Below are positions 3,777-58,154 of a stretch of 64,000 bases of DNA, piece after piece. The translations under genes and the position numbers were made by a program. The notes below the pieces were generated by a model, which was not told the origin of the DNA, searched no databases, and worked only from the letters and a program-made list of their open reading frames with translations. The stretch is from Myxococcales bacterium (lineage in GTDB: Bacteria > Desulfobacterota > Binatia > HRBIN30): positions 80,505 through 144,504 of the forward strand of contig JBBILD010000011.1 of the NCBI GenBank assembly GCA_037445065.1, written 5' to 3'. Every line of letters begins with the position of its first letter. The stretch's first letter is position 1.

Positions 3777-3778
3777 CG

Positions 3779-16203: not shown

Positions 16204-16220
16204 TTCCGCTGTACCGAACC

Positions 16221-23673: not shown

Positions 23674-23677
23674 GACC

Positions 23678-26671: not shown

Positions 26672-26722
26672 GCCGCCGAAGCAACCAAAGGAGCCAAGGA
26701 TTGTCGAGGGCACCGCGGGCTT

Positions 26723-29491: not shown

Positions 29492-29599
29492 AGGGCGCTC
29501 GGGATCGCTAGCAACGATGCCGGCATCGTATTGGCGCTTGACAATCGGCGCGGCAGCGAGTCAGTTAAGCGGGCGACGAATACGCGGAAAGGAAGCTAC

Positions 29600-30701: not shown

Positions 30702-30713
30702 GACCGCCTCCTC

Positions 30714-31433
30714 CTAACGCGAGAGGTTCGGGCACACACCTAAGGCCCCGTGTCGCACGGCAGCCGAGTAGCTCAGGATCTGCATTCCGTTTTCGCTGAA
30801 GCCGCCCACGTTGAGGATGCCGCGGTCCACGGTCCGCGAACTGGACCAGTCCCATTGCGCGGAAAGTAAGCGTTCCTTGCGCAACAGCCAAAACACCAAA
30901 AGATCGTACACGATTTCTACGGCACGCCGGCGCCGCACGCTCCACCCGTCTTGCGTCCACGGCGAGGCCCACTCATCTAAGACCTTCGTTTGCTCATCGT
31001 AGGTGCGGTTGAATGTGCGAGACAGGGGCTTGCGGGTCACCACCGCCCATCCCACGGTGGGCGTTTCGGTTCGCGCCAACGGTTCGAGTAGGATCCCCCA
31101 TTCTTCTTTGAGCTGGTAACCAACTTTTTCTAGAAAGCGCCGATCGAACGCTTGTGGATAACGTTCGATCATGGCGGCAATGGTGAGAGGTTTGCCGTCC
31201 ATCTGGCGAATACGCGGCACCAAGAGCATGTCACCACGGGCGATGGCGTCGAGCGGCTTCGGCAGGTCCCCGCCTTTTTCGGCTGCCTTTTGCGCAAGCC
31301 GGAATTCCTCGCTGGAAAACGGTAAATCTTGCGGTATCTCGGCGGCGCCTGGAAACACGCTCTGGAGTTCTTCGGGGGCAATGAACTGCTCGCCGAGGAC
31401 AAGGCGCAATGATTCCAGCCGAGTGAATTTCAT
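30714..31433 (-). CDS. Hypothetical protein (239 aa)
   Basis: Long ORF with no recognised domain. Divergent from dgt. Confidence 0.5.
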   Translation of the reverse strand: MKFTRLESLRLVLGEQFIAPEELQSVFPGAAEIPQDLPFSSEEFRLAQKAAEKGGDLPKPLDAIARGDMLLVPRIRQMDGKPLTIAAMIERYPQAFDRRFLEKVGYQLKEEWGILLEPLARTETPTVGWAVVTRKPLSRTFNRTYDEQTKVLDEWASPWTQDGWSVRRRRAVEIVYDLLVFWLLRKERLLSAQWDWSSSRTVDRGILNVGGFSENGMQILSYSAAVRHGALGVCPNLSR

Positions 31434-31484: not shown

Positions 31485-32684
31485 TTGCTTGCGGTGCCAC
31501 CCGGGTCGTATAAACCGCCTGCTTTGTGGGCGGAGCGAAAAGATCTCGAGCAATGGGAGGATCGCTGGCTTGCGCCGTGGGCAGTGCGTACCGCGGCCTC
31601 GCGCGGTCGGCAGGTCCTGGAACAGGAGCACGCGTTTCGCCTCGCATTTCAGCGCGATCGCGATCGGATCATTCACTCCACTGCCTTTCGCAGGTTGGAG
31701 TACAAGACGCAGGTGTTCGTCAACCACGAGGGCGATTACTACCGGACGCGCCTTACCCACACGATGGAAGCAGCGCAGATTGCTCGCACCTTGGCGCAGG
31801 CGCTGCGCTTGAATCAGGACTTGGCTGAGGCCATCGCCCTCGCTCACGACTTAGGCCATACGCCCTTCGGCCATGCTGGTGAGCGGGTGCTGCATGAATT
31901 GATGAAACCGTACGGGGGCTTCGAGCACAACGCGCAGAGTTTGCGCATCGTGGAATTGCTCGAAGAGCGCTACCCGCAGTTTCGCGGTCTCAATCTCACG
32001 TGGGAGGTCCGAGAGGGGATTGTCAAGCACTCGCTTCCGTACGACAAGCCGCTGGCCGAGCGGTTCGACCCCGGTCAGGCCCCGTCGCTGGAGGCGCAGT
32101 TGGTAGATTACGCCGACGAGATCGCGTACAACACCCACGATATTGATGACGGGCTCAAGTCCGGCTTGCTTTCGCCAGAGCAACTCCATGAGGTCGCCCT
32201 GTGGCGCGAGGTGTTCGACGAGGTGCGCCGAGAACATCCTGCGGCGGGTTTCCGCATCTGGCGGTATCAGGCCCAGCGGCGGCTGATTGATCTTCTAGTT
32301 ACAGATCTCATCGCGGCCGTGAGCCGCCGGATCGAGGAGGAGAGAATCACCTCGCTCGAGGACGTGCGCGACTACAAGAAACCCTTAGTTGCCTTCAGTG
32401 TGGAGCTGGAGGAGCGCCGCCAGCAGCTCAAGCGCTTTCTGATGGACAATTTGTACCGGCATTACTTGGTCAACCGCATGATGGTCAAAGCCCAGCGGGT
32501 TGTCGCGGAACTGTTTCACGCATACCGCAGCGAGCCCGGGCTTCTGCCGCCGCACATTTTGCGGCGGCGAGAGGAAGAGGGGGAAACCCTGGAGCGAATC
32601 GTGTGCGACTACATCGCAGGGATGACCGACCGCTTTGCGCTGCAAGAACATCGCAAATTGTTCGACCCTCAAGAACGCGTCTGA
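31485..32684 (+). CDS. dgt: dGTP triphosphohydrolase-like HD-domain protein
   Basis: RDRDRIIHSTAFRRLEYKTQVF and HDLGHTPFGH HD motifs. Confidence 0.85.
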   Translation: MLAVPPGSYKPPALWAERKDLEQWEDRWLAPWAVRTAASRGRQVLEQEHAFRLAFQRDRDRIIHSTAFRRLEYKTQVFVNHEGDYYRTRLTHTMEAAQIARTLAQALRLNQDLAEAIALAHDLGHTPFGHAGERVLHELMKPYGGFEHNAQSLRIVELLEERYPQFRGLNLTWEVREGIVKHSLPYDKPLAERFDPGQAPSLEAQLVDYADEIAYNTHDIDDGLKSGLLSPEQLHEVALWREVFDEVRREHPAAGFRIWRYQAQRRLIDLLVTDLIAAVSRRIEEERITSLEDVRDYKKPLVAFSVELEERRQQLKRFLMDNLYRHYLVNRMMVKAQRVVAELFHAYRSEPGLLPPHILRRREEEGETLERIVCDYIAGMTDRFALQEHRKLFDPQERV

Positions 32685-32761
32685 GCAAACCGGGGCGCGT
32701 AGCCTACAGCAACGGCGACTCCGCCCCGGCGAATGCTTCGCTGGGGCAGGCTGGAACAGCG

Positions 32762-33163
32762 TCACTGCGCATCCAACAGTCGCGCCTCGCCACGGGCGTT
32801 GTAATTGACCAGGGGTCGCTCGTCGTTCGCACTGAGGATGGCAACGATTCCCTCGTGCACGTTGTGAGACCACAGTTGCTGCCACTCGTTGGCCAGTTTG
32901 AGGCGATCGAGTCGCGGCACCTTCCGCCATGCTTCCGGATCCACGGCGATTAGGAGAATTCTTCCTTGGCGGCGGACCGAACGGACACCCACCACTTGGC
33001 GTAACTGGGGATCAGCCTGCAGCCGGGCGACGATCTCTTCGGGAGAAATCCAGTGGCCGGGTGCCTGACGGGCGGGGAGGCCCAGCAGCAGAACGAAAGC
33101 GAGCAGCAGCCAACCCGCGGCCTGGCCTCCGATGCGGGCCGCGGGCTGGCGCTTAAGCCTCAC
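32762..33163 (-). CDS. Hypothetical membrane-anchored protein
   Basis: Putative GTG start, then TM helix AAGWLLLAFVLLLGL. The upstream part of the ORF overlaps the 3' end of the large gene and was discarded. Confidence 0.4.
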   Translation of the reverse strand: MRLKRQPAARIGGQAAGWLLLAFVLLLGLPARQAPGHWISPEEIVARLQADPQLRQVVGVRSVRRQGRILLIAVDPEAWRKVPRLDRLKLANEWQQLWSHNVHEGIVAILSANDERPLVNYNARGEARLLDAQ

Positions 33164-36100
33164 GGGTTGGGTGCGGGCGTCGGAGCCGGGGTCGGAAACT
33201 GGATGCGATTCCACGGTAAATGCTCCACGCCTGGCTTTTTGAGTTCCTCTTCGCGCTGCCGTACTCGTTCCCGATCGTCCATGACGCGCGGGCTCTTGCG
33301 ATCGTCTGCCACCGCGCGCGCCGGCAGCAGTTGGTCGAGCAGGCGCGCCCACCAGGAACGCGCAGGCGCCTCAGCCGGGGCAGTAGCGACCATGATCGAA
33401 GGTGCCCCAGAACTCACCGTTGCTGCACCAGCGCTGCACGAAGGGGGCAACGCCGGACAAGTGGGCTCGCCCGTTCCTGGAGAGAGGGTGATGCCGTCGT
33501 ATTCTCCGTTGCCGTCGTGGTCGGCGAAAATCGGGTTCGTGAAACCCCACGGTAACAAGTTCCCAGCAATGGCGTTAACGGCGGGATCGAGCGGAGGAGG
33601 ACCGGTGAGGGGCAAGTTTTGGCTGGCTTCGACGATGTAATAACTGTCCTCAGTCACGGTGTCCGTATAGGTCGCATTGAAGCGCACCACATTGGCGTTG
33701 GTTTGTTCGAACGGGTTGGAGGGGTTGTTGGCGACCGCCGGGGTGGTGGTGGAGTTGAAGCAAGCGAGCACGCAACCGTTCTTGATAATCCGCACTTCTT
33801 CCACCGGGATCCACGGTGCCGCTTGTACCTGAATGTGCAGGTTGATGCTGCTCGCTGACGGACCCACCGTGTCGCCCATTTCCACCGTGGGCCCGCCATT
33901 GTCCGCGGTCACAGTAACGAACGGTCCGCTCGATACGGTCATCTGGCCGTCCAACACTGCTTGGTTGAATTGCTTCACGTCGAGCGCGCCACTGGTCGGC
34001 AAGTCCCCCGCCTTCACGAACGTGCGCGAAAAGCCAGGCAGTTCTTCCACGATCCGGTGGCTATCGGAGACGCCGGTCCCCCAAACGAAATGGCGGGCAC
34101 TGTTCTTTCCGACTTCGATGGCTTGGTTCAGCAGGCTCAGCCAGTCACGGCGCACAAGTTTCAGGTCCGAGATCGTCCCCCGGGTCGCGCCGTTGTGGAT
34201 TTCCATGACATCGAAATCGATGTTCCGTGTGCCGTTCGGGTTCTCGAAGCCGCTGCCACACCCCTGGGTCGCACACAACGTCGGCCGCGGCACGACATTC
34301 AAGTCGAGCAGCACCTGGTTGCAGCCATTTGCGGCGCCAGGAATCGAGCCGCTGTCGCAACCGCACAGACCACCGCCGGTGCACTGCGCGTGAGTGGTGC
34401 ATGAAGTGCCATCGTTCGTGCCCCCGAAACACTTGCTGTTGGAGCATTTTACGGGATACTCCTGGCAAGTATCGATGGCGCCCGGGGGATTGAAGCCAAT
34501 GTTGTCGAACATGCCGATGTTGACCACCCCACCCAACCCGGCACGAGGATGGTTGAGCTGGACGACTTGCTCCCCCAGGTCCACACACGGTGCGCCGCCG
34601 CAGTCCGAGTTCGAGGAGCAGGGCTGGCCCTTTTTCGAGCCACTGGCACATTGAAAATCGGACTGTGCACGGAGGCGGTCGTAAATCACATTGGCGCTGA
34701 CCACTTCGTCTTCGATCGAGCCGGACCGTCGCAAATTCGGGTTGAAGATGGACGGCCAAGCGTTGATGTGGCCCCACCCGTTCGCTGTAAAAGGCTGGTG
34801 GGGGACAGACGTGGTCACCTCCGTTCCGACGATCGAGGCCACGAACGGCTCCATCTTGAGCTTTTTGATGATCGGCGCGTAGTCCGTGTTGATGTCGTGG
34901 TCGGTGGAGACCATGACCTCGAGACCTTCTCCGGCGTAGCTCCGCACCCGCGCCTCGAGCGGTGCAGACGAATCCAAGCTGCGCCCTGAGTGGATGTGGA
35001 AATCGGCTGAAACGAAGCCGGCGGTATCCACCACTCGCTTGATGGTTTGGATGCCGAGGTCGGTTGTGGCCCCACTGGTGATCGTTACCGATGAGACTTG
35101 CTGGGCCGTGTATTCGAGGCCGCGGGAAATCGTGACCGTGTATGTCCCTGGTTTCACGTCCACAACGGCCTTTCCTTTGGCGTCCGTGTAAATCACGTGC
35201 ATCTGTCCGCCACCTTTTTGCACGCCCGGGAAGGAGACGGCCTTCAGGTCAGTGGTGTCTGCGCGGCACAGGTAGCCAGGGTCGCAATCAGAATCCGCGT
35301 TGCAAAGATGGCCACGGCACTTACCGTCGCTTGCACAAACGGTTCCTGTCGGACAACCACTGCTGCACGGAACCGGCACCTTGTTCGTGCAAAGGCGGAA
35401 ACAAGTGTTGCCGCTGCCGCAAGTGCTGTCGTTTGTGCAGGAAGTCGCAAAGTTGTTCGAACACATGCCGGACCGCGTATCGAACTCGAAGGCGGCGAAC
35501 TCGCGCTTCATGTCCGGCGACGGGCTCAGCGAGACTTTTGCCGGGATTCCGGTGTTGCTGTCCGCATCCCGGACTTCGATTTTCAGCCTGCCCGGCTTGG
35601 TAAGTGGAATGGGCGGAATCGCGGTGTTTTGGCCCGCGGTGACCGTGAACGGAGGCGTGACGATGTCGTTTTGTCCGGGCACACTGACCAGCGCCACGTA
35701 GTCCCCTTCGGGCAACTGAATCTTGCTGAAGCTACTCTTGGTGCGCACTGAAGAAATCGGCGCGTTGTCCAGGAGCGCCCACTGCGGACCCAGCCCAGCG
35801 AAAGTGGTCCCACCCACTCGTACAAAGGTGACGGTTCCTTCCACCGGCGAGGCGGGTTGGAATTTCCCAGACACCGTGCCGAGCGACGAGGCAAGCGGAG
35901 TTTGGTTCAGGATGCTCTCCAGGTTGCGCTTGTCGCCCACGACGCTTGCCACGTCGTTTCGTTCGCCGAGGATAAGGCGGCGCTCGAAGGTCCGCGACGC
36001 GTTGTTCGCAAGTGGCGGAGGGCTCACGTTGGGAAAGATCGTGCCGGTGAGAAAGGCCGATTGCAGGCTTTGCATGACAAAGCCAAAAGCGACCTGGGTG

Positions 36101-37047
36101 ATGGTCCCGCCAGCGGCGGGCCCGTTGGAATCGTCGAACCCCTCGCCAGGAATATACCCGTACGCGATTCCCCCCACTTTCTTGTTCCGCGCCATAACCC
36201 CGTCTTTCTGGTCCAGATTCCCAGGGGTGGCAAAGAAGGGGGCTTGGGTGAGTGCAGCCACGATGGCACCAGCGTTACTGAGGTCCAAAATAGGATGTGT
36301 AAAGCCGCGGCCTTTATCCGGAGCGAACGGCACCAGGCCGCGCCCGCCCCATAGCAGCACGTCGAAAATCGGTATGGACTTGGGGCTCCCAGTCAGGTTC
36401 CACACCTCGGTGCGGAGGAAGAGCGTGCGCGGGTTGGCTTTGCAGGCCTTGTAGGTGGTGCGCACGCGGATCGTCGGGTTGGTGCGAGTCGAGCAGAGCG
36501 CACTCGGGGAGTCGCACAGCCCGAGCATGATCCCGTACACGGTAATCGCTGCGCAGTCTTCCTCGCTCGAGGGCAGGGGGCAATTTGGGTTCGAGCTGCC
36601 GACGGTCGCGCACGGGTTGTTCCCACTGGGCACGCCCCAAGGAACCTCGTCCCCTTTCCGGAACAAAAACACGTTTGCCAAGCTCAGGCCGCCGACGTTG
36701 AAGCTCTGCGGCAATTGATCGTTGTGCTTGCCTTTGATGCCTAGGTCGAGCAGGGTACCGCCGGTTTCGACGGCGTTGGAGGAGGTTAGGTCCACCGTTG
36801 CGCTGCCACCGACTGCCGGGATGGTTTCCGTGTCAATGTTGTCAATGATGGCGACCACTTTGCCGTTGGTCAGGGCCCAGTCGCCAATGCCGCCGGCGCT
36901 ATCCGATCCGCCGATGAGCAACGCATTCGCGTTTGTGGGAGTGATCTGTTCTGCCTTGCACGGGCCGCACACTGCCACTGCCGGCTGGCTAGCCAGCAGC
37001 ACTGCCACAAACCCAGCGAGCACCAAGCCCGGTTGTGTCCTGCTCAT
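33160..37047 (-). CDS. Very large secreted Cys-rich protein with a PHP-like (CehA/McbA-type) metallohydrolase domain
   Basis: Signal peptide MSRTQPGLVLAGFVAVLLASQPAVA. PHP-like motifs FHIHSGRSLDS...VMVSTDHD...QLNHPRAG. Several Cys-rich EGF-like segments. About 1295 aa. Confidence 0.75.
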   Translation of the reverse strand: MSRTQPGLVLAGFVAVLLASQPAVAVCGPCKAEQITPTNANALLIGGSDSAGGIGDWALTNGKVVAIIDNIDTETIPAVGGSATVDLTSSNAVETGGTLLDLGIKGKHNDQLPQSFNVGGLSLANVFLFRKGDEVPWGVPSGNNPCATVGSSNPNCPLPSSEEDCAAITVYGIMLGLCDSPSALCSTRTNPTIRVRTTYKACKANPRTLFLRTEVWNLTGSPKSIPIFDVLLWGGRGLVPFAPDKGRGFTHPILDLSNAGAIVAALTQAPFFATPGNLDQKDGVMARNKKVGGIAYGYIPGEGFDDSNGPAAGGTITQVAFGFVMQSLQSAFLTGTIFPNVSPPPLANNASRTFERRLILGERNDVASVVGDKRNLESILNQTPLASSLGTVSGKFQPASPVEGTVTFVRVGGTTFAGLGPQWALLDNAPISSVRTKSSFSKIQLPEGDYVALVSVPGQNDIVTPPFTVTAGQNTAIPPIPLTKPGRLKIEVRDADSNTGIPAKVSLSPSPDMKREFAAFEFDTRSGMCSNNFATSCTNDSTCGSGNTCFRLCTNKVPVPCSSGCPTGTVCASDGKCRGHLCNADSDCDPGYLCRADTTDLKAVSFPGVQKGGGQMHVIYTDAKGKAVVDVKPGTYTVTISRGLEYTAQQVSSVTITSGATTDLGIQTIKRVVDTAGFVSADFHIHSGRSLDSSAPLEARVRSYAGEGLEVMVSTDHDINTDYAPIIKKLKMEPFVASIVGTEVTTSVPHQPFTANGWGHINAWPSIFNPNLRRSGSIEDEVVSANVIYDRLRAQSDFQCASGSKKGQPCSSNSDCGGAPCVDLGEQVVQLNHPRAGLGGVVNIGMFDNIGFNPPGAIDTCQEYPVKCSNSKCFGGTNDGTSCTTHAQCTGGGLCGCDSGSIPGAANGCNQVLLDLNVVPRPTLCATQGCGSGFENPNGTRNIDFDVMEIHNGATRGTISDLKLVRRDWLSLLNQAIEVGKNSARHFVWGTGVSDSHRIVEELPGFSRTFVKAGDLPTSGALDVKQFNQAVLDGQMTVSSGPFVTVTADNGGPTVEMGDTVGPSASSINLHIQVQAAPWIPVEEVRIIKNGCVLACFNSTTTPAVANNPSNPFEQTNANVVRFNATYTDTVTEDSYYIVEASQNLPLTGPPPLDPAVNAIAGNLLPWGFTNPIFADHDGNGEYDGITLSPGTGEPTCPALPPSCSAGAATVSSGAPSIMVATAPAEAPARSWWARLLDQLLPARAVADDRKSPRVMDDRERVRQREEELKKPGVEHLPWNRIQFPTPAPTPAPNP

Positions 37048-37141
37048 GACTCCCTCCTTTGCCCGCAGGCGATCCGCACGGTTCGATCGCCTTGCTTTCA
37101 CTCTTTTGTCTCGCGGTTGTCAATCCGGGTCGTGAACTCTG

Positions 37142-42530: not shown

Positions 42531-42673
42531 GCAACTAACGGTCGTTCATTTCTCCTGTCAAGCGACCGCGGAAACGATCATTCTCCAGCGACCGCGCGGC
42601 CGAGGCCAAAGGCGGCGATGGACTCGGGGCGCGGCGGCGTTGCGCGAGCCCCGTGAGTCCGTCCCCCCCGTTG

Positions 42674-43633
42674 TCATCCGGCCGAGCGGTGTAGCGAGAG
42701 TCCGAGCTCGACTCGTTCCGCGGCGGTACAGGCTGGGTCGGCACGCTTGCCTCCCAGAGCTTCGAGCAAAGGGCGCAAGCCCTTGCCGTTGGCCAACTGG
42801 ATGGCCAGCCCTGGGCGCGCATTGAGTTCGAGGATGCAGGGACCGAGGTGGGGGTCAATGACGATGTCCACGCCCAGATAGCCCAGCGGCACGGCGTCGA
42901 AACAACGCGCGGAGATGTCGAGAAGCTCGCCCCAACAGGGCACGCGTAGCTCGCGGAGCGGGGCGCCAGTGTCGGGATGTTGTTCGATGGCCCGCCCCTC
43001 CCAGACCGCGTGTCTGGCGCAGCCGGAAGAAAAATCCACTCCCACGCCGATGCCGCCAAGGTGCAAATTGGCGCGCCCGTCGGACTGCCGTGTCGGCAGG
43101 CGCACCATCGCCAGGATCGGAACTCCGTGTACCACCACGATGCGCACGTCGGGCACTCCCGCAACGCAAAACGCCTCGAAGTCCGGGTGGCACTGCAAGC
43201 GGTGCTCGACAAACACTTCGTCGGTGGTCTGCGTGAGCGAAAAGGCGCCGGCCAGAATGTCCGCCGCGTGGGCGAGCAGATCCTGCTCGCTCACCCGTTT
43301 GCCGCTCGGACGCAGCCACTGCTCTTGCTCGCGTTGTACGACGACCACGATGCCCTCGCCGCCAGCGCCACGTGCTGGTTTGAGCACGAAGTCGTCGAAC
43401 TGCCGCAGGCGCTCCCCTAGGTCTCGTAATTGGGAGAAGTGGGCGCAGGCCGCGTACGTGCGTGCCACAGGGAGTCGCCGCTCCTCCAAGGCACGTTTGG
43501 TGGCGAGTTTGTTGTCCACCAAGGCGACGAGCTGCGGTGGGTTGAAGGGAATCATGTAGTCGTGGTTGCGACGGTTGAGTCCGAGCGCTTCGCGGTGCAG
43601 CCGTTGGAGGCGCTGAACCAGGTGCTGGATCAT
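42674..43633 (-). CDS. RimK-like ATP-grasp alpha-L-glutamate ligase-like protein
   Basis: Start at MIQHLVQRLQ, overlapping the upstream stop as ATGA. ATP-grasp fold (FVLKPARGAGGEGIVVV...LGVDIVID...ILELNARPG). The 238 codons at the ORF 5' end are an out-of-frame overlap with the upstream gene. Confidence 0.8.
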   Translation of the reverse strand: MIQHLVQRLQRLHREALGLNRRNHDYMIPFNPPQLVALVDNKLATKRALEERRLPVARTYAACAHFSQLRDLGERLRQFDDFVLKPARGAGGEGIVVVVQREQEQWLRPSGKRVSEQDLLAHAADILAGAFSLTQTTDEVFVEHRLQCHPDFEAFCVAGVPDVRIVVVHGVPILAMVRLPTRQSDGRANLHLGGIGVGVDFSSGCARHAVWEGRAIEQHPDTGAPLRELRVPCWGELLDISARCFDAVPLGYLGVDIVIDPHLGPCILELNARPGLAIQLANGKGLRPLLEALGGKRADPACTAAERVELGLSLHRSAG

Positions 43634-45822
43634 GCCCCTTTTCCCTCCTCGGTGAGCGGCCAGAAACGCACGTACTCGAGGAGTCGCAGGCCGCGCCACT
43701 TGCCGAGCACGATGTCCACGCCCACGGACAGCAAGAGGATTTCTGGGAAGGCGAGGAGCAGAGACTGCAGCCCTCCCCATTCTATGGCGGTGTGACACGC
43801 AGCCGCCATGAGCAAGGTGTTGGCAGTGAGTCGCAGGGCAGTGCGAGTGCCGAACTGCGCGCGCGACGAGGCAAAATGCTCGATCATGTTGGACATGATG
43901 ACCATGGGAAAAATGCTGACGTTGAGCAAAGCGCCAATGCCGAAGGAAGCTCCGAGCACGGCGAGGCCAGCCATGATTCCGGCCACGATCGTGATCAGGA
44001 TGGCTAGACGCGAGACCAACTGCAGCCGTACCCTCTGCAGAACGGGGCGAAGCGCAGCACCGCTGCCAACGATCGTCACGAAGATCAGGATACCCCAGGC
44101 AAGCCCCGTGGTCAGGAACGCCAGCGAAACGATGACCGGCGCAAACGTCCCAAAGGTCTCGATCCCCACCACGATGCGAACCAGCACCACGAGAGCGGCA
44201 ATCACGGGCAGGACCAGGATGAAGGTCAGGGCTTGCAAGGGAACTTGCGCTACCACCGCACGCGACCAAGCCGCTACCACCCAGCGCCGCCAAGGCTGCA
44301 GGGAGTCGATCAGGAAGGCGTCTACCGAGGTGGGCTTCAATGCCCACTTGCGCGCTTCGCTGGCGAACGGAAGTCCGTCGAGCAAGTTTGCGCGGACCAG
44401 CGACCAGAGCACCGGTAACTTGACCGGGCGATCGAGCAAAACGATTTCCCCGGCGTCGAGCAATCTGTACAACACCGCGCCGAGAACAGTGCCCACTGGG
44501 CGCGCAAACTCGCCGGCAATCACCACCCGCGCGTCTTGCATTTTTACGCCGACCTCGCCGAGCACCAGAGAGGCAAAAAGCCCGGAGTCGTCGCCAGTGT
44601 GCAGGACAAGTACGTGCGCGGCTTGGACCAAATTGAGGTTGTTCGACAGGAGCCGCTGTAAGTATTGCTGGCGGAAGTACCTCGGCGCTTGCGGGACGTT
44701 AAACACGACCACGTTCACGTCCGCGTTCGTTGCTTCTCCAAAGATCCGCTCGATGGTTTGCGCAGCGGGGTCCTGGTCCGTGATGATCACCACGGAGGCC
44801 ACCGGGTCGGCTACGTAGCTCGACAGAGTGCGCGCTAGAGGTCGCGGGGGAGCGACAAACTCGCGCGCCTTCCCCCCTGACGGACTGGCAGATTCGAGGC
44901 GGGTTCGCTGGATGAGAAAGCCGTAGTCGAACTCCGTTCCTGCAGAGGAAACAATCAGAGGCAGGTCGCCCCGATAGATCGCGAAGTAGCGGTTAGGCAG
45001 CCAGGCGAAATGCCCTCCACTGGGATCGAGCGGTACCCATGTGTCGCCAACCTTGGCCTCGACCCAGGCAATGGTGGCCCGCTTCTTGGCCGCGTCTTCC
45101 AGACGCAGCCCGCCAATGATGTCGGCGGGAATCCCGCTGGCCCGCAGTAAGGCGGCGAGCAAGCGAGCGCGGCCGGTCATCGTCCCTTTTCCCCGGCGCA
45201 GCACGCTGAGCGCGTCTTCCCGCGTCCCCCCACTCGAGGCTTGAATCGAATTTGCAGTGAATTGAAAGAGAGCCCACAGTACCTCGCGCATGGATTTGGC
45301 GCCCTCGGTGAGTTCGCGTGCCAGTTTGCGCACGCCTGGATCCTGGCTCTGGATGAGCGAGGAGTCAGGCCAGTCTGGCCCCGTGGCCTCTCCCGTTCGT
45401 GGAGGAGGTGGTTGTTCCGGAACGTCGGCAATCGTATCGCGCACAGTTGCATCCCATTCGAGGACGATCTCGGGAGCTTGCGAGCCCGGCTCGCGTACGT
45501 AAACGCCCAGCATGTTCGGCCCGACAGGCGACTCGGAGAGGCGGAAGCCGGGTGTTTGGTTGCGGCGGCTCAGGATCTGCTGATGATCATTTGACAGCGG
45601 CAAAAAAACCTTGAAGGATCCGCTGGACAAATCCGGACTGGGGCGAAGGTAAAATCGTACCCGCCAGTAGGTGGTGGTCGGATTTTGCGGGCGTTCCTGT
45701 TGCGGAATGGCGAGTTCGGGCCCAGCGTAGAGTTCGGCGCTTGTGGTGGGTGTCGAAACGGCGGTCATGGCGCCCGCGTTGGCAGACCATAGGAGGCAAG
45801 CCAGCAGCAGGCGCAGGACCAT
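43630..45822 (-). CDS. Inactive transglutaminase-like domain fused to a C-terminal 7-transmembrane domain
   Basis: Signal peptide from Met 45822 (the ORF-track start 45951 would overlap the divergent ACAD). Transglutaminase-like core with the catalytic Cys replaced (KGTMTGRARLLAALLRASGIPADIIGG). Seven C-terminal hydrophobic helices. Confidence 0.8.
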   Translation of the reverse strand: MVLRLLLACLLWSANAGAMTAVSTPTTSAELYAGPELAIPQQERPQNPTTTYWRVRFYLRPSPDLSSGSFKVFLPLSNDHQQILSRRNQTPGFRLSESPVGPNMLGVYVREPGSQAPEIVLEWDATVRDTIADVPEQPPPPRTGEATGPDWPDSSLIQSQDPGVRKLARELTEGAKSMREVLWALFQFTANSIQASSGGTREDALSVLRRGKGTMTGRARLLAALLRASGIPADIIGGLRLEDAAKKRATIAWVEAKVGDTWVPLDPSGGHFAWLPNRYFAIYRGDLPLIVSSAGTEFDYGFLIQRTRLESASPSGGKAREFVAPPRPLARTLSSYVADPVASVVIITDQDPAAQTIERIFGEATNADVNVVVFNVPQAPRYFRQQYLQRLLSNNLNLVQAAHVLVLHTGDDSGLFASLVLGEVGVKMQDARVVIAGEFARPVGTVLGAVLYRLLDAGEIVLLDRPVKLPVLWSLVRANLLDGLPFASEARKWALKPTSVDAFLIDSLQPWRRWVVAAWSRAVVAQVPLQALTFILVLPVIAALVVLVRIVVGIETFGTFAPVIVSLAFLTTGLAWGILIFVTIVGSGAALRPVLQRVRLQLVSRLAILITIVAGIMAGLAVLGASFGIGALLNVSIFPMVIMSNMIEHFASSRAQFGTRTALRLTANTLLMAAACHTAIEWGGLQSLLLAFPEILLLSVGVDIVLGKWRGLRLLEYVRFWPLTEEGKGA

Positions 45823-45941
45823 GGATGGCAAGTGTCTACCAGGAGCTACCTGTACGGGCAATGGCGTAGGCGTTGGCAAGTGTGGCTTGGTTGTCTCGGT
45901 CCGGTGGGCATGCTTAAGCCAAGACCCACACCAGAAAACCG

Positions 45942-47111
45942 GTGGAGGCAAGGACCATGAGCGGTAGCGTGGGTTACGAGCAGGAAGAAGTGGTGGCCAC
46001 GGTACGGCGTTTTGTGGAGCGCGAAGTCATGCCGGTGGCGAGCGCGCTCGAGCATCGAAACGAGTATCCGTCCGCGTTGGTCGAGCGGATGCGGGAGTTG
46101 GGCTTGTTTGGAGCGACGATCCCTCCCGAGTACGGGGGTCTCGGCCTCGACGTGACCACCTATGCGCGGATCGTGGAGGAGCTGGCCCGGGGTTGGATGA
46201 GCCTGAGTGGGGTGCTGAACACTCATCTCATGGTCGCCTACTTGATTCGCGTGCACGGAACAGACGCGCAACGCTCCCACTACTTGCCGGCGATGGCGCG
46301 AGGCGAGCACCGCGGGGCATTGTGCCTGACCGAGCCGCACGCCGGAAGCGACGTGCAGCGCATCCGCACCACCGCGGTACGGCGCGGGGACACCTACGTG
46401 CTGAACGGTAGCAAGATGTTCATCACCAACGCGCGGACCGCAACGGTCTACGCAATTGCCGCGAAAACCGACCCCAAGGCCGATCCGCCGTACCGCGGGA
46501 TTAGCTTGTTCCTGGGCGAAAAAGGCCCGGGTCTCACGGTAAGCCGGGACATCGACAAGCTCGGGTACAAGGGGATCGAGACCTGCGAAGTGCACCTGGA
46601 AGACTACCACGTTCCGGCGGATCGCTTGCTCGGCGGAGAGGAAGGAAAAGGGTTCTTGCAGGTCATGAGCGGCCTCGAGGTCGGGCGTGTGAACATCGCT
46701 GCTCGCGCTGTGGGCGTGGCTACGGCTGCGTTCGAACAGGCGATCCGGTACGCACAACAGCGGGAAACCTTCGGCCGCCCGATTGCCCAGCACCAAGCAA
46801 TCCAACTGAAGCTGGCTGACATGGCAACCAAAATCGAAGCGGCGCGGCTTCTCACCTATCGTGCGGCGGAGAAGAAAGATCGGGGGGAACGTGCTGACCT
46901 GGAGGCCGGCATGGCAAAGCTGTTTGCGTCCGAAACGTGCCTCGAGGTCGCCACCGAAGCCATGCGCATCTTGGGCGGCTACGGGTACACGGCCGAGTTC
47001 CCAATTGAACGCTACTTCCGTGACGCGCCACTCATGATCATCGGTGAAGGGACCAACGAGATTCAGCGCCTGGTCATCGCTCGCCAACTGCTCGAAAAGT
47101 ACAAGCTTTAA
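45942..47111 (+). CDS. Acyl-CoA dehydrogenase
   Basis: 389 aa canonical ACAD (CLTEPHAGSDV, GGYGYTAEFPIERYFRDA). Confidence 0.9.
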   Translation: MEARTMSGSVGYEQEEVVATVRRFVEREVMPVASALEHRNEYPSALVERMRELGLFGATIPPEYGGLGLDVTTYARIVEELARGWMSLSGVLNTHLMVAYLIRVHGTDAQRSHYLPAMARGEHRGALCLTEPHAGSDVQRIRTTAVRRGDTYVLNGSKMFITNARTATVYAIAAKTDPKADPPYRGISLFLGEKGPGLTVSRDIDKLGYKGIETCEVHLEDYHVPADRLLGGEEGKGFLQVMSGLEVGRVNIAARAVGVATAAFEQAIRYAQQRETFGRPIAQHQAIQLKLADMATKIEAARLLTYRAAEKKDRGERADLEAGMAKLFASETCLEVATEAMRILGGYGYTAEFPIERYFRDAPLMIIGEGTNEIQRLVIARQLLEKYKL

Positions 47112-48581: not shown

Positions 48582-50003
48582 ATGCAAACGGAGAGACTCC
48601 AGTCGTGGATCACGGCCGAGTGGCAGCGCTCGGTGCTTCCTGCCTTGCGCGAGTACATTTCCATCCCCAACCAGTCCCCCGCCTACGATCCGGAGTGGCG
48701 AACCAACGGCTTGCTCGAGCGAGCGCTGGGGGTCGCGCGACAATGGATAGAAGCGCAGCGTTTGGGGGGCTTGCGCGTGGAAACGGTGGTGTTGCCGGGT
48801 CGCACGCCGCTGTTGTTGCTCGAGGCGGACGGAGGCCGGGAGGGAACGGTGCTCCTGTATGGCCACCTCGATAAACAGCCCCCTTTCGAGGGCTGGCGCG
48901 CAGGGCTGGGTCCGTTTGAGCCTGTCCTTGAGGGAGATCGGCTGTACGGCAGGGGCGGGGCGGACGATGGTTACGCGGTGTTTGCGATCGTGACGGCTTG
49001 GCGAGCCTTGCAAGAGTTCGGGGCCCGCTTCCCGCGTTGCGTCGCCCTCATCGAGTGCAGCGAAGAAAGTGGCAGCGGCGACCTCGAAGCGTACGTAGAA
49101 CATCTCCGAGACCGCATCGGACGACCGGACCTGGTTGTCTGTCTCGATTCGGGGTGCGGCGATTATGAGCGCTTGTGGGCCACGGTGTCGCTGCGCGGGC
49201 TGGTCAACGCGGTCCTGCGCATTCGCGTGCTCGAGGAGGGTGTGCATTCCGGCGCGGCCAGCGGTGTGGTGCCCTCGACCTTTCGCATTGCGCGCCAACT
49301 CTTGGGTCGGATCGAGGACGATAAGACCGGGCGCATTTTGCTGGACTATGCTTGGTGCCCCATTCCCGAACAGCGGCTCGCCGAAGCGGAGGAAGTGGCG
49401 CGCGTGGTGGGCCCCGCGTTGCGCGATGCGTTCCCGTTTTATCGAGGAGCGCGTCCGGTCAGCGCCGATCCGCTTGAACTCGTCCTCAACCGGACCTGGC
49501 GCCCCCAGTTGGAGGTCGTCGGTGCCAGCGGTTTGCCCCCGGTGGCGAACGCTGGCAATGTGCTGCGGCCGATGACGGAGCTGAAGCTGTCTTTGCGGTT
49601 GCCGCCGCGCGTCAACGCTGCGGGAGTCGCACAGGCGTTGCAGCGAAGGCTGGAGGAAGACCCCCCTTACGGAGCCGATGTGGTTCTCGAGATTGGCGAG
49701 GCGGCGAGCGGCTGGGATTCCCCGGCGCTCACTGCCGAGCTGCAGCGTCTCTTGCATGCTGCGTCGCTCGCGTATTGGGGAAAGCCGCCTTGTTTTATGG
49801 GCGAAGGGGGCACGATTCCTTTTATGGGGATGCTGGGGCGGCTGTTTCCGGCCGCACAATTTGTGGTCACCGGTGTGCTGGGGCCGCACTCGAATGCGCA
49901 CGGTCCGAACGAGTTTCTGCACTTGCCGACGGCAGAGCGAATCACGTGCGCGGTCGCGCACGTGCTCGCGGAATGGACGGGGGCGGGTGCAGAGGCCGAG
50001 TGA
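48582..50003 (+). CDS. M20/M25/M40 family metallopeptidase (dipeptidase-like)
   Basis: 473 aa with M20 motifs LLYGHLDKQPP, GRGGADDGY and ECSEESGSGD. Confidence 0.85.
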   Translation: MQTERLQSWITAEWQRSVLPALREYISIPNQSPAYDPEWRTNGLLERALGVARQWIEAQRLGGLRVETVVLPGRTPLLLLEADGGREGTVLLYGHLDKQPPFEGWRAGLGPFEPVLEGDRLYGRGGADDGYAVFAIVTAWRALQEFGARFPRCVALIECSEESGSGDLEAYVEHLRDRIGRPDLVVCLDSGCGDYERLWATVSLRGLVNAVLRIRVLEEGVHSGAASGVVPSTFRIARQLLGRIEDDKTGRILLDYAWCPIPEQRLAEAEEVARVVGPALRDAFPFYRGARPVSADPLELVLNRTWRPQLEVVGASGLPPVANAGNVLRPMTELKLSLRLPPRVNAAGVAQALQRRLEEDPPYGADVVLEIGEAASGWDSPALTAELQRLLHAASLAYWGKPPCFMGEGGTIPFMGMLGRLFPAAQFVVTGVLGPHSNAHGPNEFLHLPTAERITCAVAHVLAEWTGAGAEAE

Positions 50004-52994: not shown

Positions 52995-54794
52995 ATGATT
53001 GGCGGAAAAATGGTCACACCCGTGCAGCGTTGGCTGCTCCTGGTGTGCGCCTCTTGCCTTGCGGGTACCGCGTCTGCCCTACCTCGCTACGGGCCGCTCG
53101 AAGTCAGCGGAAACCTCAGTGCGCAGCAGTTGTTCCGTTCGCCGGACCCGGGCGTGTGGGGCTTGGTTCAACAACGCAACACGGTGAAGGTTCGGGTTGA
53201 CTACAATCTTCTCGAGCGAGGCAGGCTGGCTGACCGACTCGAGGTCCCGGGGATCGAGCGCGCCAAACTGTTCCTGCTTTACCGCGGCGTCTACGACAGC
53301 GTATACGACCTCACTCCTGGATTCGAGCAGGACGACATTTACGGCCTCCCCATCGGGTTACGCTTGCGCCACTTACCGCGGCGGGCGCTGGACGCTTTGC
53401 GCTTCGAGAATCGCCTGCGAGAGGCGTACCTGGACATCAAATTGGCGAAGCTGCCTTTGAGTTTTCGGCTCGGCCGGCAGCAGATCGTGTGGGGGGAGAC
53501 CGACAACTTTCGCCTGCTGGACCGAGTCAACCCTCTCGACCTCACTTGGCACTTGCAGCAGGAGACGTGGGACGAACTGCGCGTGCCGCAGTGGATCATC
53601 AAAGGGCTGTGGGACATCGACCGATTGGGCCCTCTGAACAACGCGTTTGTGGAATTTTACTGGAATCCAGGCGACTGGAACCCGGCGAAGAAAGCGTTTT
53701 TGCCGCGCCCTTGGAGTGCACCGATCGTGAACCCACTCGATGATCCGCGCTCGCCGCCGGCGGGTGGGCGCGGCTTGTTCCAACTTTTGTCCCGTTTTTA
53801 TGGGCGTCCGATCGACAAGCTTTATCGGGGAACGCGCCTGTTTCAGCAGGGTGACTATACCCGCAATCCTGCGGACAACAGCCAGGTCGGCGTGCGGTTC
53901 AGCGCCGTCACTGGGAGCGAGATGCCGCTGCTTCCGGAGGGCCTGCAGTTCACCCTGAATTACTTTTACCAGCGTTGGGCGGGTGACGATGGTACGAATG
54001 CCGCAGCGTTCCGCGCTGTGCTGAACCCACGGGAAGCTCTGGATGCGATCCGACGAGGCGAGGCTCCTTTGGAGGCCATTGCTCCGTACGTCCACGCTGT
54101 AGGTTTCTCCTTGAACTACGCGGAGGAGAAGTACACTCAGACCGTCTATCGGGTCGAGAGCATTTACGAATTCGGGGTTCCCTTTGTGGATGCGGCGAAG
54201 AGCTTTTCGCTCTCCTCGCCCTTGGCCCTGCTTGCCAATGACATATACGGGGTGAGCAAGCGCGACATGTGGAAGGGGATGGTCGGCTTCGATCGCCCCA
54301 CCTGGATCCGCCCTCTGAATCGGAAGGCGACGTTCCTCATCCTCGGGCAGTTCTTTTGGCACTATTTGCTGGACAACCCGGACATCCAGTGTCGCGATCC
54401 GCAGGAACGTCCGCCGTGCGAGCGGAGCGGACAGGGCCGCGGGTTCCGCGGGCAGTTCTCAACCAGCGGTGTGGCCACCACCGGAATCCCGGGGCAGCTC
54501 GCCTACATTGATAAAGTGCGCGACTGGGAGTTGTTGGCCACGTTGGCAGCCACCACGTTCTATCAGGGCGGAAAGATCGTGCCGTTTGTCGTGTACATCA
54601 TCGACCCAGTGAACCACTACAACCAGGAAGTCATCGGGCTGCTGGACTACTTTATCACGAACAACGTGATTCTGAGTTTCTCCCAGCGCTTTTTCATCAA
54701 CACCACCAGCCGTCCGGTGTTCGAGTCGTGGGGAGTCGCTGGATTGAACCGGGGACGCACGGAAACAGGCGTGAAACTGACGATCCAGTTTTGA
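52995..54794 (+). CDS. DUF1302-family outer-membrane protein
   Basis: 599 aa with an N-terminal signal peptide and DUF1302-like sequence. Followed 10 nt later by a DUF1329 gene, the conserved pair. Confidence 0.75.
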   Translation: MIGGKMVTPVQRWLLLVCASCLAGTASALPRYGPLEVSGNLSAQQLFRSPDPGVWGLVQQRNTVKVRVDYNLLERGRLADRLEVPGIERAKLFLLYRGVYDSVYDLTPGFEQDDIYGLPIGLRLRHLPRRALDALRFENRLREAYLDIKLAKLPLSFRLGRQQIVWGETDNFRLLDRVNPLDLTWHLQQETWDELRVPQWIIKGLWDIDRLGPLNNAFVEFYWNPGDWNPAKKAFLPRPWSAPIVNPLDDPRSPPAGGRGLFQLLSRFYGRPIDKLYRGTRLFQQGDYTRNPADNSQVGVRFSAVTGSEMPLLPEGLQFTLNYFYQRWAGDDGTNAAAFRAVLNPREALDAIRRGEAPLEAIAPYVHAVGFSLNYAEEKYTQTVYRVESIYEFGVPFVDAAKSFSLSSPLALLANDIYGVSKRDMWKGMVGFDRPTWIRPLNRKATFLILGQFFWHYLLDNPDIQCRDPQERPPCERSGQGRGFRGQFSTSGVATTGIPGQLAYIDKVRDWELLATLAATTFYQGGKIVPFVVYIIDPVNHYNQEVIGLLDYFITNNVILSFSQRFFINTTSRPVFESWGVAGLNRGRTETGVKLTIQF

Positions 54795-54804
54795 GGACAC
54801 AGCG

Positions 54805-56076
54805 ATGACAAAATCCCTCCGAATCGCAGTAATAGGCTTAGCCGTGTCAGCGGCCATCCAGGCGCCGGCGGACGTTCAACCTGGAGATGTCGTCACGAAG
54901 GACAACGTCAGCAAGGCAGAGGGGCTGATCGGACCTGGCGTGCGCTGGTGTGTGGAGCACGGGATGCAGATGAAGATCGTGCCGACGCGACGTGTGGAGT
55001 GGCCGCGCAGGTATCGGGAAGCAACGGAGAAGTACTCTGCACAGGTTCGCCTGGCGGCAGATCGCAACAAACTCGAAAACTACGTGGCGGGCATGCCGTT
55101 CCCGAACATTGACCCGAACGACCCCGACGCCGCGACCAAGATCATGTGGAATTACCAGTACAAGCCACTGATTACCGACGATGTTCTCATGCGCGACTTC
55201 CAGGTGCCGAGCGGTCCGCTGACCTACACGGCGCCGATGGTTCCGGATCGTGAATTCACCATCGGCGACCTTCGCCGTCTGTACTACAACGGCCGCTTGT
55301 TCGTGGATCCAAAGCCAGAACTGCCCAACCCGGACGGTGTGCGGTACAAAGAAATCCTCAGTCCGGTGGTCGCACCGTACGATATGAAGGGTGTGGGAGC
55401 TCTGTACATTCGGTACGTAGACGCGTCGCGGCAGGATGACAGTTGGCTCTACGTACCTGCGGTGCGGCGTGTGCGGCGAATGTCCACTGCCCAGCGTAGC
55501 GATGCGCTTTTTGGCCAAGACACCGACGTGGACTCTTACTGGGGCTTCAGTGGTCACATTGCCTGGTTCGATTGGAAGTTGCTCGGCGTGCGCGAAATGC
55601 TGGGTGTGTTGCACCGCGAGCAGTTTCGGCCGCAACGTTGTCCGGGCGGGGCCGACTTCGTGTTTTGCGACAATTGGGAAAAACGCCGAGTTTACGTCAT
55701 CGAGGGGACCGCCCGCTTACCACAGTACGCGTACGGCAAGCGCGTGCTGTACATTGACAGCGAGGCCTGGGTAGTACTGGCATCGGACATTTATGATAAA
55801 CGAGGCGACCTTTGGAAAGTGTGGATCGAGTACTTTTCTTTCCGCAAGCAGGCCCCCGGGTCGGACCTGATTTACGAGGACGAGATGGGCTTCACCTCGG
55901 CGACAATGGTGGACACCCAGATGAACCACGCTACCGTCATTATGATTCCCGGCCCGAACTCTCCCGATCCGAATACCTGGTACTTCAATCAGGGTCCGAA
56001 CGCCCGCTCTCCCTATGCTTCCGGCAATACGGAAGACGTGTTTACGATCTCTCACTTGATCAGCGCTGGGCACTGA
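54805..56076 (+). CDS. DUF1329-family periplasmic/outer-membrane-associated protein
   Basis: Signal peptide. GMPFPNIDPNDPDAATKIMWNYQY motif typical of DUF1329. Confidence 0.8.
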   Translation: MTKSLRIAVIGLAVSAAIQAPADVQPGDVVTKDNVSKAEGLIGPGVRWCVEHGMQMKIVPTRRVEWPRRYREATEKYSAQVRLAADRNKLENYVAGMPFPNIDPNDPDAATKIMWNYQYKPLITDDVLMRDFQVPSGPLTYTAPMVPDREFTIGDLRRLYYNGRLFVDPKPELPNPDGVRYKEILSPVVAPYDMKGVGALYIRYVDASRQDDSWLYVPAVRRVRRMSTAQRSDALFGQDTDVDSYWGFSGHIAWFDWKLLGVREMLGVLHREQFRPQRCPGGADFVFCDNWEKRRVYVIEGTARLPQYAYGKRVLYIDSEAWVVLASDIYDKRGDLWKVWIEYFSFRKQAPGSDLIYEDEMGFTSATMVDTQMNHATVIMIPGPNSPDPNTWYFNQGPNARSPYASGNTEDVFTISHLISAGH

Positions 56077-57515: not shown

Positions 57516-58154
57516 GTGGTAACGAGTGCTGCCATGGTCAGCGGGAAATCCAAGAAGCGGCAGCCGCGAGTCAAGCGGCTGATCGAACGCGCTATGGAAC
57601 TCGAGCGCCAGACCATGGAGTTATATTGCCTGTTCGAGACGCGTTTTTCTGAGCCCGAGGAGGTACGGAGTTTTTGGTTCGAGATGGCCCAGCACGAGTC
57701 GCGCCACTTTGGGGCCTTGGCCTTGGTCGCGGGCCTGTTGCGAGGCCAGTCGCCGCGGCCATTGGCGGCAAGCTGCGGGTTTCGTCCGGAACACTTGGCT
57801 CACTTGAAGGCCTTGCTGCAACGCTTCCTGCGCGAAGCTCGGCGCGGGGCAAGCTTGGAGCGTGCGTTCGAAATGACTTTGGAAATCGAGAGTTCTGAGA
57901 TCGAAGAGGTCGTGCTGGATCTCACCGAACAGTTGCGCGGCGAAGCCGAACGGGAAAAAGCCGCCAAGCTTCTCATCCACGATTTGGGGGACCTCACCTA
58001 CATGATCGAGAAGTACACGCACAACCAAGAACTGCTCGCACGCGCAGACGACCTCCTGGAAAAACAGGTGAACCGATTACAGGGCGGAGGAGGCTCCGCT
58101 CCGGGGGCGGCGCGCAAGAACGCGGTTCGCCTCAGGGTGGCAGAACGCCGCTAG
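57516..58154 (+). CDS. Ferritin/rubrerythrin-like hypothetical protein
   Basis: ExxH-type diiron-site-like motifs (ELERQTMELY, EMAQHESRHF). Confidence 0.5.
   Translation: MVTSAAMVSGKSKKRQPRVKRLIERAMELERQTMELYCLFETRFSEPEEVRSFWFEMAQHESRHFGALALVAGLLRGQSPRPLAASCGFRPEHLAHLKALLQRFLREARRGASLERAFEMTLEIESSEIEEVVLDLTEQLRGEAEREKAAKLLIHDLGDLTYMIEKYTHNQELLARADDLLEKQVNRLQGGGGSAPGAARKNAVRLRVAERR

Follow-up and report, generated by a model that had tools for sequence, protein, structure and literature searches.

An RloB/RloC-type membrane protein and ligase pair in Candidatus Binatia, with one additional domain and without RloA in the neighbourhood

The module described here consists of a membrane protein gene (gene B) followed directly by an ATP-grasp ligase gene (gene C), and by sequence comparison the two are homologous to rloB and rloC of the rloABC operon. 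The Binatia pair is a lineage-specific variant of this known system, with an extra domain and no protease nearby. We hold it to be probable, rather than secure, that this is the Binatia version of RloB-RloC, in which membrane protein B and cytoplasmic ligase C form one complex that works outside the acyl-CoA pathway.

A system that combines a 7TM/inactive-transglutaminase protein with an ATP-grasp enzyme was reportedly predicted by Iyer et al. in 2009, and the original prediction that this module matches it is borne out by the domain hits and by the homology to rloB and rloC. NCBIfam now holds an RloB model (NF052267). It had also been said that the system was not characterised biochemically; this is out of date, as the genetics of rloABC, together with the structure and enzymology of RloA, are now known (PMC12239564). 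The rloABC operon of P. aeruginosa (RloB/RloC: PA14_41710/41730) was the subject of a genetic study by Lormand et al. (mBio 2025; PMC12239564), in which the RloA peptidase was also studied structurally and enzymatically and was found to cleave polyglutamate in vitro. In P. aeruginosa, the only organism for which the phenotype is reported there, rlo affects hypo-osmotic tolerance, the envelope, and cell shape; RloB and RloC are epistatic to RloA, and the hypo-osmotic lethality of a triple rloA mutant is rescued by deletion of rloB or rloC (PMC12239564).

Genes B and C are both encoded on the minus strand of the window, by which we mean the whole 64-kb stretch of DNA that was analysed. Gene B, for the RloB-like membrane protein, occupies 43630-45822 (730 aa plus stop), as defined by its translation, Pfam/NCBIfam matches, homologs, and an AF2 model. 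Gene C, for the RloC-like cytoplasmic ATP-grasp amidoligase, occupies 42674-43633 (319 aa plus stop). The module had been drawn to end at 45951, but this is only how far the longest open reading frame, opening with TTG, can be extended; the supported start is the ATG at 45822, which yields the 730-aa product with its signal peptide and agrees in length with the gene call of a 98%-identical relative. The 129 homologs of gene B range from 700 to 805 aa.

At 43630-43633 the plus strand reads TCAT, giving ATGA on the coding strand, in which TGA ends gene B and ATG opens gene C. Direct reading confirms this 4-nt overlap, and the gene calls of the 98%-identical relative have it too. Similarly, a strong Shine-Dalgarno sequence for gene C, AGGAGG, can be read directly at 43644-43649 (minus strand), within the 3' end of gene B and 10 nt upstream of the gene C ATG. 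The overlap and the internal ribosome-binding site are compatible with the translational coupling that had been proposed. The pairing of B with C is far beyond chance, because gene C comes directly after gene B in all related loci (56/56) and most of the junctions overlap. In addition, transglutaminase-like, 7TM, and ATP-grasp domains occur fused in single chains (P0290, P0311, P0383, and P0302).

From its N-terminus, the gene B product is made up of a signal peptide, a beta-sandwich, a dead transglutaminase-like core, a linker, an alpha/beta domain, and the 7TM domain; its structure was examined in an AF2 model with a pLDDT of 76.5. The signal peptide or anchor, MVLRLLLACLLWSANAGAM, covers residues 1-19 (45766-45822, minus strand) and coincides with a hydropathy peak and a model helix at 2-18, and export is predicted. 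The beta-sandwich N-domain follows at residues 50-128 (45439-45675, minus strand), and the transglutaminase-like core at residues 162-307 (44902-45339, minus strand), the latter placed by PF01841 (59.8 bits) and by alignments to 3isr and 6g49. The 7TM_transglut membrane domain, residues about 510-724 (43651-44295, minus strand), was delimited by PF14402, model helices, and hydropathy. A profile HMM search, the check suggested with the original prediction, returned Transglut_core (PF01841) at 3.7e-16 and 7TM_transglut at 8.8e-45 in Pfam, the latter scoring 153.6 bits over residues 532-723, where the cut-off is 25. The Arg/Lys-rich loops and tail, and the position of the ATP-grasp domain C-terminal to the 7TM domain in the fusions, predict an N-out, C-in topology.

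Between the transglutaminase-like and 7TM domains of the long-form protein lies a further domain, periplasmic and of alpha/beta (flavodoxin-like) type, which spans about 160 aa (residues about 343-500; 44323-44796, minus strand) and had previously been missed. It has no Pfam match, and its fold matches are generic flavodoxin-like. Nearly all long-form sequences in this survey come from Candidatus Binatia MAGs, which contribute 51 loci.

That the catalytic Cys has been lost at GTMTGRA (gene B residues 213-219) is upheld when the protein is aligned with 3isr and 6g49, both active enzymes. M215 (45178-45180) takes the place of the Cys and I251 (45070-45072) that of the His, and Asp266 (45025-45027; all minus strand) is kept, so that Asp alone remains of the Cys-His-Asp triad. 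Among 41 family members, none has the Cys and none the His, and all 41 have the Asp. By fold and Pfam match gene B belongs with the PF01841 transglutaminase-like cysteine proteases, and the aligned residues mark this domain as catalytically dead across the long-form family. As both Cys and His are lost, it probably binds and does not cut. 3isr, a transglutaminase-like putative cysteine protease of Cytophaga hutchinsonii, has Cys and His and no membrane domain, whereas gene B has Met and Ile.

Short-form 7TM_transglut proteins from uncultured sources, such as P0254 and P0255, which are without the middle alpha/beta domain, are the closest relatives of gene B in both its N-terminal half (173-177 bits) and its 7TM domain. 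In alignment A2, these short forms retain the Cys (ASCxGK) in 17 of 30 rows and the His (THxWVE) in 21 of 30, a retention that had gone unremarked. The label "inactive" does not suit every transglutaminase domain of this kind, since such close short forms keep both residues. As in the long form, P0255 is followed by an overlapping ATPgrasp_ST gene, and a large TPR protein comes after it.

The assignment of gene C to the ATP-grasp family is well founded (PF14397, ATPgrasp_ST, 1e-74 in Pfam), and its score against TIGR02291, 309.7 bits, is slightly below the 314.2 cut-off. Its description as "RimK-like" is a loose one, the protein being of the ATPgrasp_ST/TIGR02291 type. Scores fall short of the RimK family thresholds (53 bits against 143.4 for TIGR00768), PF08443 gives 27.7 bits with no single stretch significant, the match to Pseudomonas RimK (7qys) is weak at 19.7 bits, and gene C shows no N-terminal accessory (RLAN) domain. 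K85, the Gly-rich loop at 89-94, R187/N189/H191/GG, and E269-x-N271 are conserved, which leaves the motifs for binding ATP and Mg intact, and because these invariant ATP-grasp motifs align with those of RimK, the ligase is likely active.

RimK, the poly-alpha-glutamate ligase for ribosomal protein S6, shares with gene C the ATP-grasp fold and the R-x-N-L-H-x-GG and E-x-N motifs. With the retropepsin-like peptidase RimB, it provides the model applied to Rlo, in which a Glu-specific aspartic peptidase counteracts a ligase. RimK, however, works entirely in the cytoplasm and lacks a membrane partner such as gene B.

As a canonical reference we used an rloABC locus on a Legionella plasmid, verified with Pfam. 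Common to RloB/RloC and the Binatia pair are the 7TM_transglut domain with an exported, catalytically dead transglutaminase-like domain, and an ATPgrasp_ST/TIGR02291 ligase directly downstream with overlapping stop and start; the Legionella B/C overlap is likewise 4 nt. Between gene C and Legionella RloC the identity is 40.8% (about 41%). For the 7TM domains of gene B and Legionella RloB it is 38%, and Legionella RloB scores 151 bits with a Binatia profile over this domain, whereas the N-terminal domain aligns only at E about 0.01. Gene B is also longer than RloB (730 aa against about 508 aa), and compared with short-form and gammaproteobacterial RloB the extra alpha/beta domain is found in the long form alone. 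Its N-terminal domain matches PF01841 and not PF14400 (Transglut_i_TM), to which Legionella RloB has a match at 1e-44, and against the RloB equivalog model NF052267 it scores 133 bits, in the 7TM part only, where the cut-off is at least 900. Given the score below this cut-off and the presence of PF01841 in place of PF14400, its function may differ from that of the Pseudomonas system. The hosts also differ, Binatia here and Gammaproteobacteria there, and no RloA (PF05618) gene lies nearby here.

We propose that the gene B product is an inner-membrane protein whose exported beta-sandwich, dead transglutaminase-like, and flavodoxin-like domains would be followed by seven helices, leaving its C-terminus in the cytoplasm, where the gene C amidoligase would sit. 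The two proteins most likely form one membrane-bound complex. The gene C protein would spend ATP adding amino acids, of which glutamate, the substrate of its relative RimK, is the most plausible; the acceptor could be a peptide that is being extended or an envelope molecule bearing a carboxylate. The gene B protein would link this ligation with the periplasm, whether it passes the product across, anchors it, or senses it, with export or presentation as the presumed outcome. Glutamate is proposed by analogy, as an extrapolation from RimK (about 20 bits of similarity) and from the specificity of RloA in vitro.

Gene B could instead encode mainly the sensor of a receptor-controlled enzyme: in the periplasm its dead transglutaminase-like domain and a binding-protein-like lobe would bind a ligand, and its 7TM domain would switch on the cytoplasmic ligase, with a cytoplasmic target and no export. 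We regard this as unlikely: the fold matches of the extra domain are of the generic kind noted above, and the Pseudomonas peptidases are secreted and act genetically on RloB/C output, which argues for a periplasmic product (PMC12239564). The idea that in Binatia the long form works on its own as a receptor-enzyme, independently of any peptidase, strikes us as speculative and quite improbable; its dead transglutaminase-like domain and binding-protein-like lobe would form a periplasmic ligand-binding head connected by the 7TM domain to the cytoplasmic amino-acid ligase. If it were true, an envelope or environmental signal would directly control the synthesis of a peptide-type product, a wiring unlike the "make and trim" logic proposed for Pseudomonas RloABC.

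Returning to the RloB-RloC complex that we favour, its peptidase partner is missing from the neighbourhood, as first reported: PF05618 is absent next to the module and across the 64-kb window, including its 20 small ORFs. Searches by tblastn and by unfiltered HMM in six frames found no RloA in the window or within 8 kb in the 51 Binatia loci; the controls were positive, and the same HMM caught distant CPR homologs at E = 6e-6. The phrase "reduced two-component variant" is fair as a description, with RloA within 8 kb in 0/51 Binatia loci, but "reduced" is not established; the three loci of the Cys-retaining short form P0255 are also without RloA. With RloA absent nearby, the Pseudomonas logic of a product that needs trimming may not apply. 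It is possible, if doubtful, that the system is a canonical three-part one whose RloA-type (PF05618) or other trimming peptidase is encoded elsewhere; it would then operate just as Pseudomonas rloABC does and be "two-component" by gene order only. Two of the three redundant RloA paralogs of P. aeruginosa do lie outside the rlo operon (PMC12239564). In one sister Binatia clade, 10 loci have a CPBP (CPBP/Rce1-like) intramembrane protease gene directly after gene C, and one more has it about 1 kb further off, as if the module needed some protease partner but not a particular one. The RloA HMM, however, was negative in the window and all 51 Binatia loci despite its reach to CPR homologs, and the 64-kb window holds no CPBP homolog.

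The acyl-CoA genes said to flank the module are present, with a divergent acyl-CoA dehydrogenase upstream and, downstream, a family III CoA-transferase together with two AMP-binding ligases. Co-option into CoA-linked metabolism, with the ligase acting on an acyl-CoA-derived acid or alongside the flanking synthetases, CoA-transferase, and dehydrogenase, is nevertheless very unlikely and unsupported, because the downstream CoA genes are confined to the window's own small clade and only the divergent dehydrogenase is more widely kept. Apart from the window and its 98%-identical relative, just two relatives, at 60% identity, have AMP-binding and CoA-transferase genes after gene C. The gap to the downstream AMP-binding gene is about 145 nt with no clear terminator, which would allow a connection; a consensus scan detected none between gene C and this acyl-CoA synthetase gene, and a GC-rich hairpin just past the gene C stop (42620-42660, minus strand, from RNA folding) is a weak candidate for the transcript end, with a non-significant z-score of -1.4 and no place in the scan output. 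Orthologs of the dehydrogenase (75-90% identical) lie immediately upstream in about 17 loci from two major clades, of the three in Binatia, and a regulatory link with the module is conceivable, but this gene is on the opposite strand and far more conserved than gene B or gene C. One whole major clade retains B-C with no acyl-CoA neighbour; CPBP protease, NUDIX, AAA, or glycosyltransferase-like genes adjoin the pair in other clades, and the homologous pairs of Legionella, Andersenbacteria, and one short-form locus set have unrelated neighbours. Moreover, when the window's genes (roughly 50) were clustered by sequence and representatives checked with Pfam, about 8 proved to be acyl-CoA dehydrogenases, CoA-transferases, or AMP-binding ligases, at dispersed positions between 3.8 kb and 47 kb, and Binatota genomes carry complete fatty-acid degradation pathways (PMC8262859).

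For the window itself, placing the pair with RloB-RloC chiefly means correct annotation; it is neither a new system nor evidence for a CoA link. In P. aeruginosa, RloB and RloC influence antibiotic tolerance, biofilm formation, and cell shape, and the survey supplies comparative constraints on their biochemistry. The conserved core is the B-C pair, in some organisms as one fused chain. The protease partner can be done without or exchanged: Legionella has RloA, as do other Gammaproteobacteria according to the literature, CPR bacteria have it fused to the ligase, and some Binatia have a CPBP protease, whereas the short-form locus set that we examined has a TPR protein in this place and the window's clade has no partner nearby. 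These constraints narrow the possible mechanisms, and point to simpler two-gene systems for in-vitro reconstitution.

Genes B (RloB-like membrane protein) and C (RloC-like ATP-grasp ligase) both lie on the minus strand, at 43630-45822 and 42674-43633 (319 aa), respectively. The longest open reading frame of gene B begins with a TTG and extends to 45951; we place the start at the ATG at 45822, because the resulting 730 aa protein opens with a typical signal peptide and agrees with homolog lengths and with the gene call of a 98%-identical relative. Positions 43630-43633 are TCAT on the plus strand and hence ATGA in the coding direction, and this direct reading bears out the predicted four-nucleotide overlap between the B stop and the C start. 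An AGGAGG Shine-Dalgarno sequence sits within gene B, 10 nt 5' of the gene C ATG. In 56 of 56 loci B is directly followed by C, most junctions overlapping by 4 or 13 nt.

In Pfam, residues 165-267 of B match Transglut_core (3.7e-16) and residues 532-723 match 7TM_transglut (8.8e-45), as the original prediction had it. The NCBIfam model "osmotic stress tolerance membrane protein RloB" aligns to the 7TM part only (133 bits; cut-off 900), and neither residues 20-165 nor the middle domain gave a Pfam match even at E ≤ 10. In the AlphaFold model of B (pLDDT 76.5), an N-terminal signal peptide and a beta-sandwich (residues 50-128) precede the transglutaminase-like core (162-307), which a disordered linker (310-342) joins to an alpha/beta middle domain (~343-500); a helical membrane bundle (510-724) follows. 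Its Arg/Lys-rich loops and tail, together with B-C fusion proteins, support a predicted N-out, C-in topology.

The catalytic site of the transglutaminase-like domain is, as judged from alignment, dead. The motif GTMTGRA, proposed to be the Cys-less counterpart of the active-site motif, corresponds to residues 213-219. In profile alignments of B to the active enzymes 3isr and 6g49, M215 occupies the catalytic Cys position and I251 that of the His, with D266 alone of the triad kept. None of 41 long-form homologs (B proteins that carry the middle domain) has Cys or His at these positions; the Cys position is taken by S, T, A, M, or V, and the Asp is invariant.

Gene C matches ATPgrasp_ST at 1e-74 (Pfam) and scores 309.7 bits against TIGR02291, "alpha-L-glutamate ligase-like protein," slightly below the 314.2 cut-off. 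The proposed RimK-like ligase therefore held up as an ATP-grasp protein, but its score falls far under the RimK family thresholds, and the N-terminal accessory domain is absent. The ATP-grasp signature residues (K85, the Gly-rich loop at 89-94, R187/N189/H191/G193-G194, D256, and E269-x-N271) are invariant across the family, which suggests that the enzyme is probably active.

How widespread is this arrangement? The 129 close homologs of B all measure 700-805 aa, and nearly all of those with a source name belong to Candidatus Binatia or "Deltaproteobacteria" metagenome-assembled genomes. A scan of species-representative genomes returned 51 loci of the long form, again with few exceptions under these two labels; its query was the long-form alignment, so it mainly sampled Binatia. 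Among 1.8 billion representative proteins there are 11,003 relatives of B, of which the long form makes up about six 50%-identity clusters, and most are 505-550 aa short forms that skip the middle domain. Among short-form 7TM_transglut proteins of this size, P0254, P0255, and similar sequences, as well as locus L059:6001-8476, retain both the Cys and the His of the transglutaminase catalytic sites; several of them carry Cys at the Asp position. Since the nearest short forms retain both the Cys (ASCxGK) and the His (THxWVE), the triad appears to have been lost secondarily in the Binatia proteins, and the "inactive" label of the 7TM_transglut Pfam family is, on these residues, not universal, failing for a large short-form branch. 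The middle domain and 7TM bundle also occur after other N-termini, such as PKD. Four metagenomic proteins join the transglutaminase-like domain, the 7TM bundle, and ATPgrasp_ST in a single chain (P0290, P0311, P0383, and P0302; 822-880 aa, or 1558 aa for P0302, with its added TPR repeats). Such fusions are strong evidence that B and C act together physically, with the ligase facing the cytoplasm.

The closest described system is the Pseudomonas aeruginosa operon named rloABC by Lormand et al. (mBio 2025, PMC12239564). In that operon, rloA encodes a secreted retropepsin-like peptidase (Pfam PF05618) with polyglutamate-cleaving activity in vitro, rloB the inactive-transglutaminase/7TM protein, and rloC the ATP-grasp protein; the hypo-osmotic lethality of a triple rloA mutant is rescued by deleting rloB or rloC (PMC12239564). 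A Shewanella transposon screen has tied an RloB homolog to membrane-vesicle production (PMC12096838). A Legionella adelaidensis plasmid carries a canonical rloABC (PF05618, then PF14400 with PF14402, then PF14397, all Pfam-checked), also with a 4-nt B/C overlap. Its RloC is 40.8% identical to the C of the window, whereas its RloB shows 38% identity to B in the 7TM domain only, its N-terminal half aligning marginally.

The peptidase predicted to be missing beside the pair is indeed missing from the window: Pfam scans of 20 of its small ORFs and tblastn with two RloA sequences found no RloA-type gene. An unfiltered HMM search of all six-frame ORFs from the window and from every locus in the set matched, besides the controls from Legionella and Aeromonas, just two loci, both from Andersenbacteria; the HMM is narrow, as the search with the Legionella RloA protein gave close Legionella-type sequences only, yet it still detected these CPR homologs. 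An RloA-type peptidase encoded elsewhere and acting in trans would be compatible with our main model and has a precedent in Pseudomonas, where two of the three RloA paralogs lie off the rlo operon (PMC12239564); we regard it as possible, if on balance doubtful.

Related loci differ in what accompanies the pair. In the Candidatus Andersenbacteria loci L055 and L056 (L056:7071-9938), a PKD plus 7TM_transglut protein is followed by an ORF fusing ATPgrasp_ST to the retropepsin-like PF05618 domain (Pfam-confirmed in L056); the "RloA" module is there joined to the cytoplasmic ligase and not secreted. Three loci of the Cys-retaining P0255 lack RloA and have an 857-aa TPR protein after the pair. In one Binatia clade of the B tree, 10 loci have a gene for a CPBP/Rce1-like intramembrane protease (PF02517) directly after C and in the same orientation (L046:11314-12102; also L009-L014, L017, L041, and L048). 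This protease is a possible alternative partner there; the window holds no homolog. The nearby M20 peptidase at 48582-50003 was dropped as a substitute, its recurrence being confined to close relatives of the window.

The original prediction also offered co-option into CoA-linked metabolism, given the flanking acyl-CoA genes. The gene order in the window is divergent acyl-CoA dehydrogenase, B, C, AMP-binding ligase, CoA-transferase III, AMP-binding ligase, and Era, and the 98%- and 60%-identical relatives share it in full. A consensus promoter and terminator scan gave nothing useful around the module, with no terminator in the gap between C and the downstream AMP-binding gene (42531-42673), and a GC-rich hairpin 3' of the C stop was not significant against shuffles, so transcription may read through. 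When gene contexts were mapped onto a neighbour-joining tree of B, however, AMP-binding and CoA-transferase genes followed C only in the window's small clade; in the CPBP clade the protease gene takes that position, and in a third clade a NUDIX gene lies downstream, with ABC transporter and glycosyltransferase-like genes on the upstream side. The sole recurring neighbour is the dehydrogenase (45957-47111, plus strand, divergent from B across a 134-bp gap), found at about 17 Binatia loci in two of the three major clades. Its orthologs there are 75-90% identical, far above the conservation of B (45-61%) or C, it lies on the opposite strand, and one whole Binatia clade keeps B-C without it. We read it as retained ancestral synteny, with a shared regulatory region at most. 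Sequence clustering, with representatives checked in Pfam, assigns about eight of the roughly 50 window genes to three acyl-CoA enzyme families (acyl-CoA dehydrogenases, CoA-transferases, and AMP-binding ligases), at sites spread between 3.8 kb and 47 kb. Complete pathways for fatty-acid degradation are known from Binatota genomes (PMC8262859). No CoA enzyme reached an NCBIfam equivalog cut-off, the best match of the dehydrogenase being acryloyl-CoA reductase AcrC (363 bits against 640). Co-option into CoA metabolism is thus very improbable.

Several other features of the window deserve a record. A housekeeping block at 900-4978 (minus; YlxR, RimP, GreA) is probably the nusA/infB region and is adjoined by a family III CoA-transferase paralog (3779-4978). 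A 1313-aa ORF (33160-37101, minus) has a weak CarboxypepD_reg match alone and occupies the same position beside Era in the relatives L001 and L062; the latter, 98% identical, also shares a DUF1302 and DUF1329 (LolA-like) gene pair (52995-56076, plus). A simple GC3 heuristic also yielded eleven candidate ORFs (90-276 aa), some perhaps spurious, that had no Pfam match at E ≤ 0.01, among them those at 14698-15036, 16065-16544, 23197-23814, 26138-26713, 29531-30361, 30429-31433, 32603-32953, 57516-58154, and 60335-60742.

The observation behind the original prediction stands, and its interpretation does so in part. What the analysis shows is the set of parts and their coupling. B and C would most likely assemble into a complex at the membrane, whose chemistry we infer as follows. 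The cytoplasmic ligase would join amino acids onto a peptide or carboxylate acceptor; these are plausibly glutamate, a guess from RimK homology, polyglutamate cleavage by RloA, and the Pseudomonas epistasis. B would connect this chemistry to the periplasmic side, where the ligand of its dead transglutaminase-like domain and extra lobe would be either the product or a signal. That the pair is purely a sensor-controlled enzyme seems unlikely to us. The B-C module is a lineage-specific variant of the known, partly understood Rlo system.
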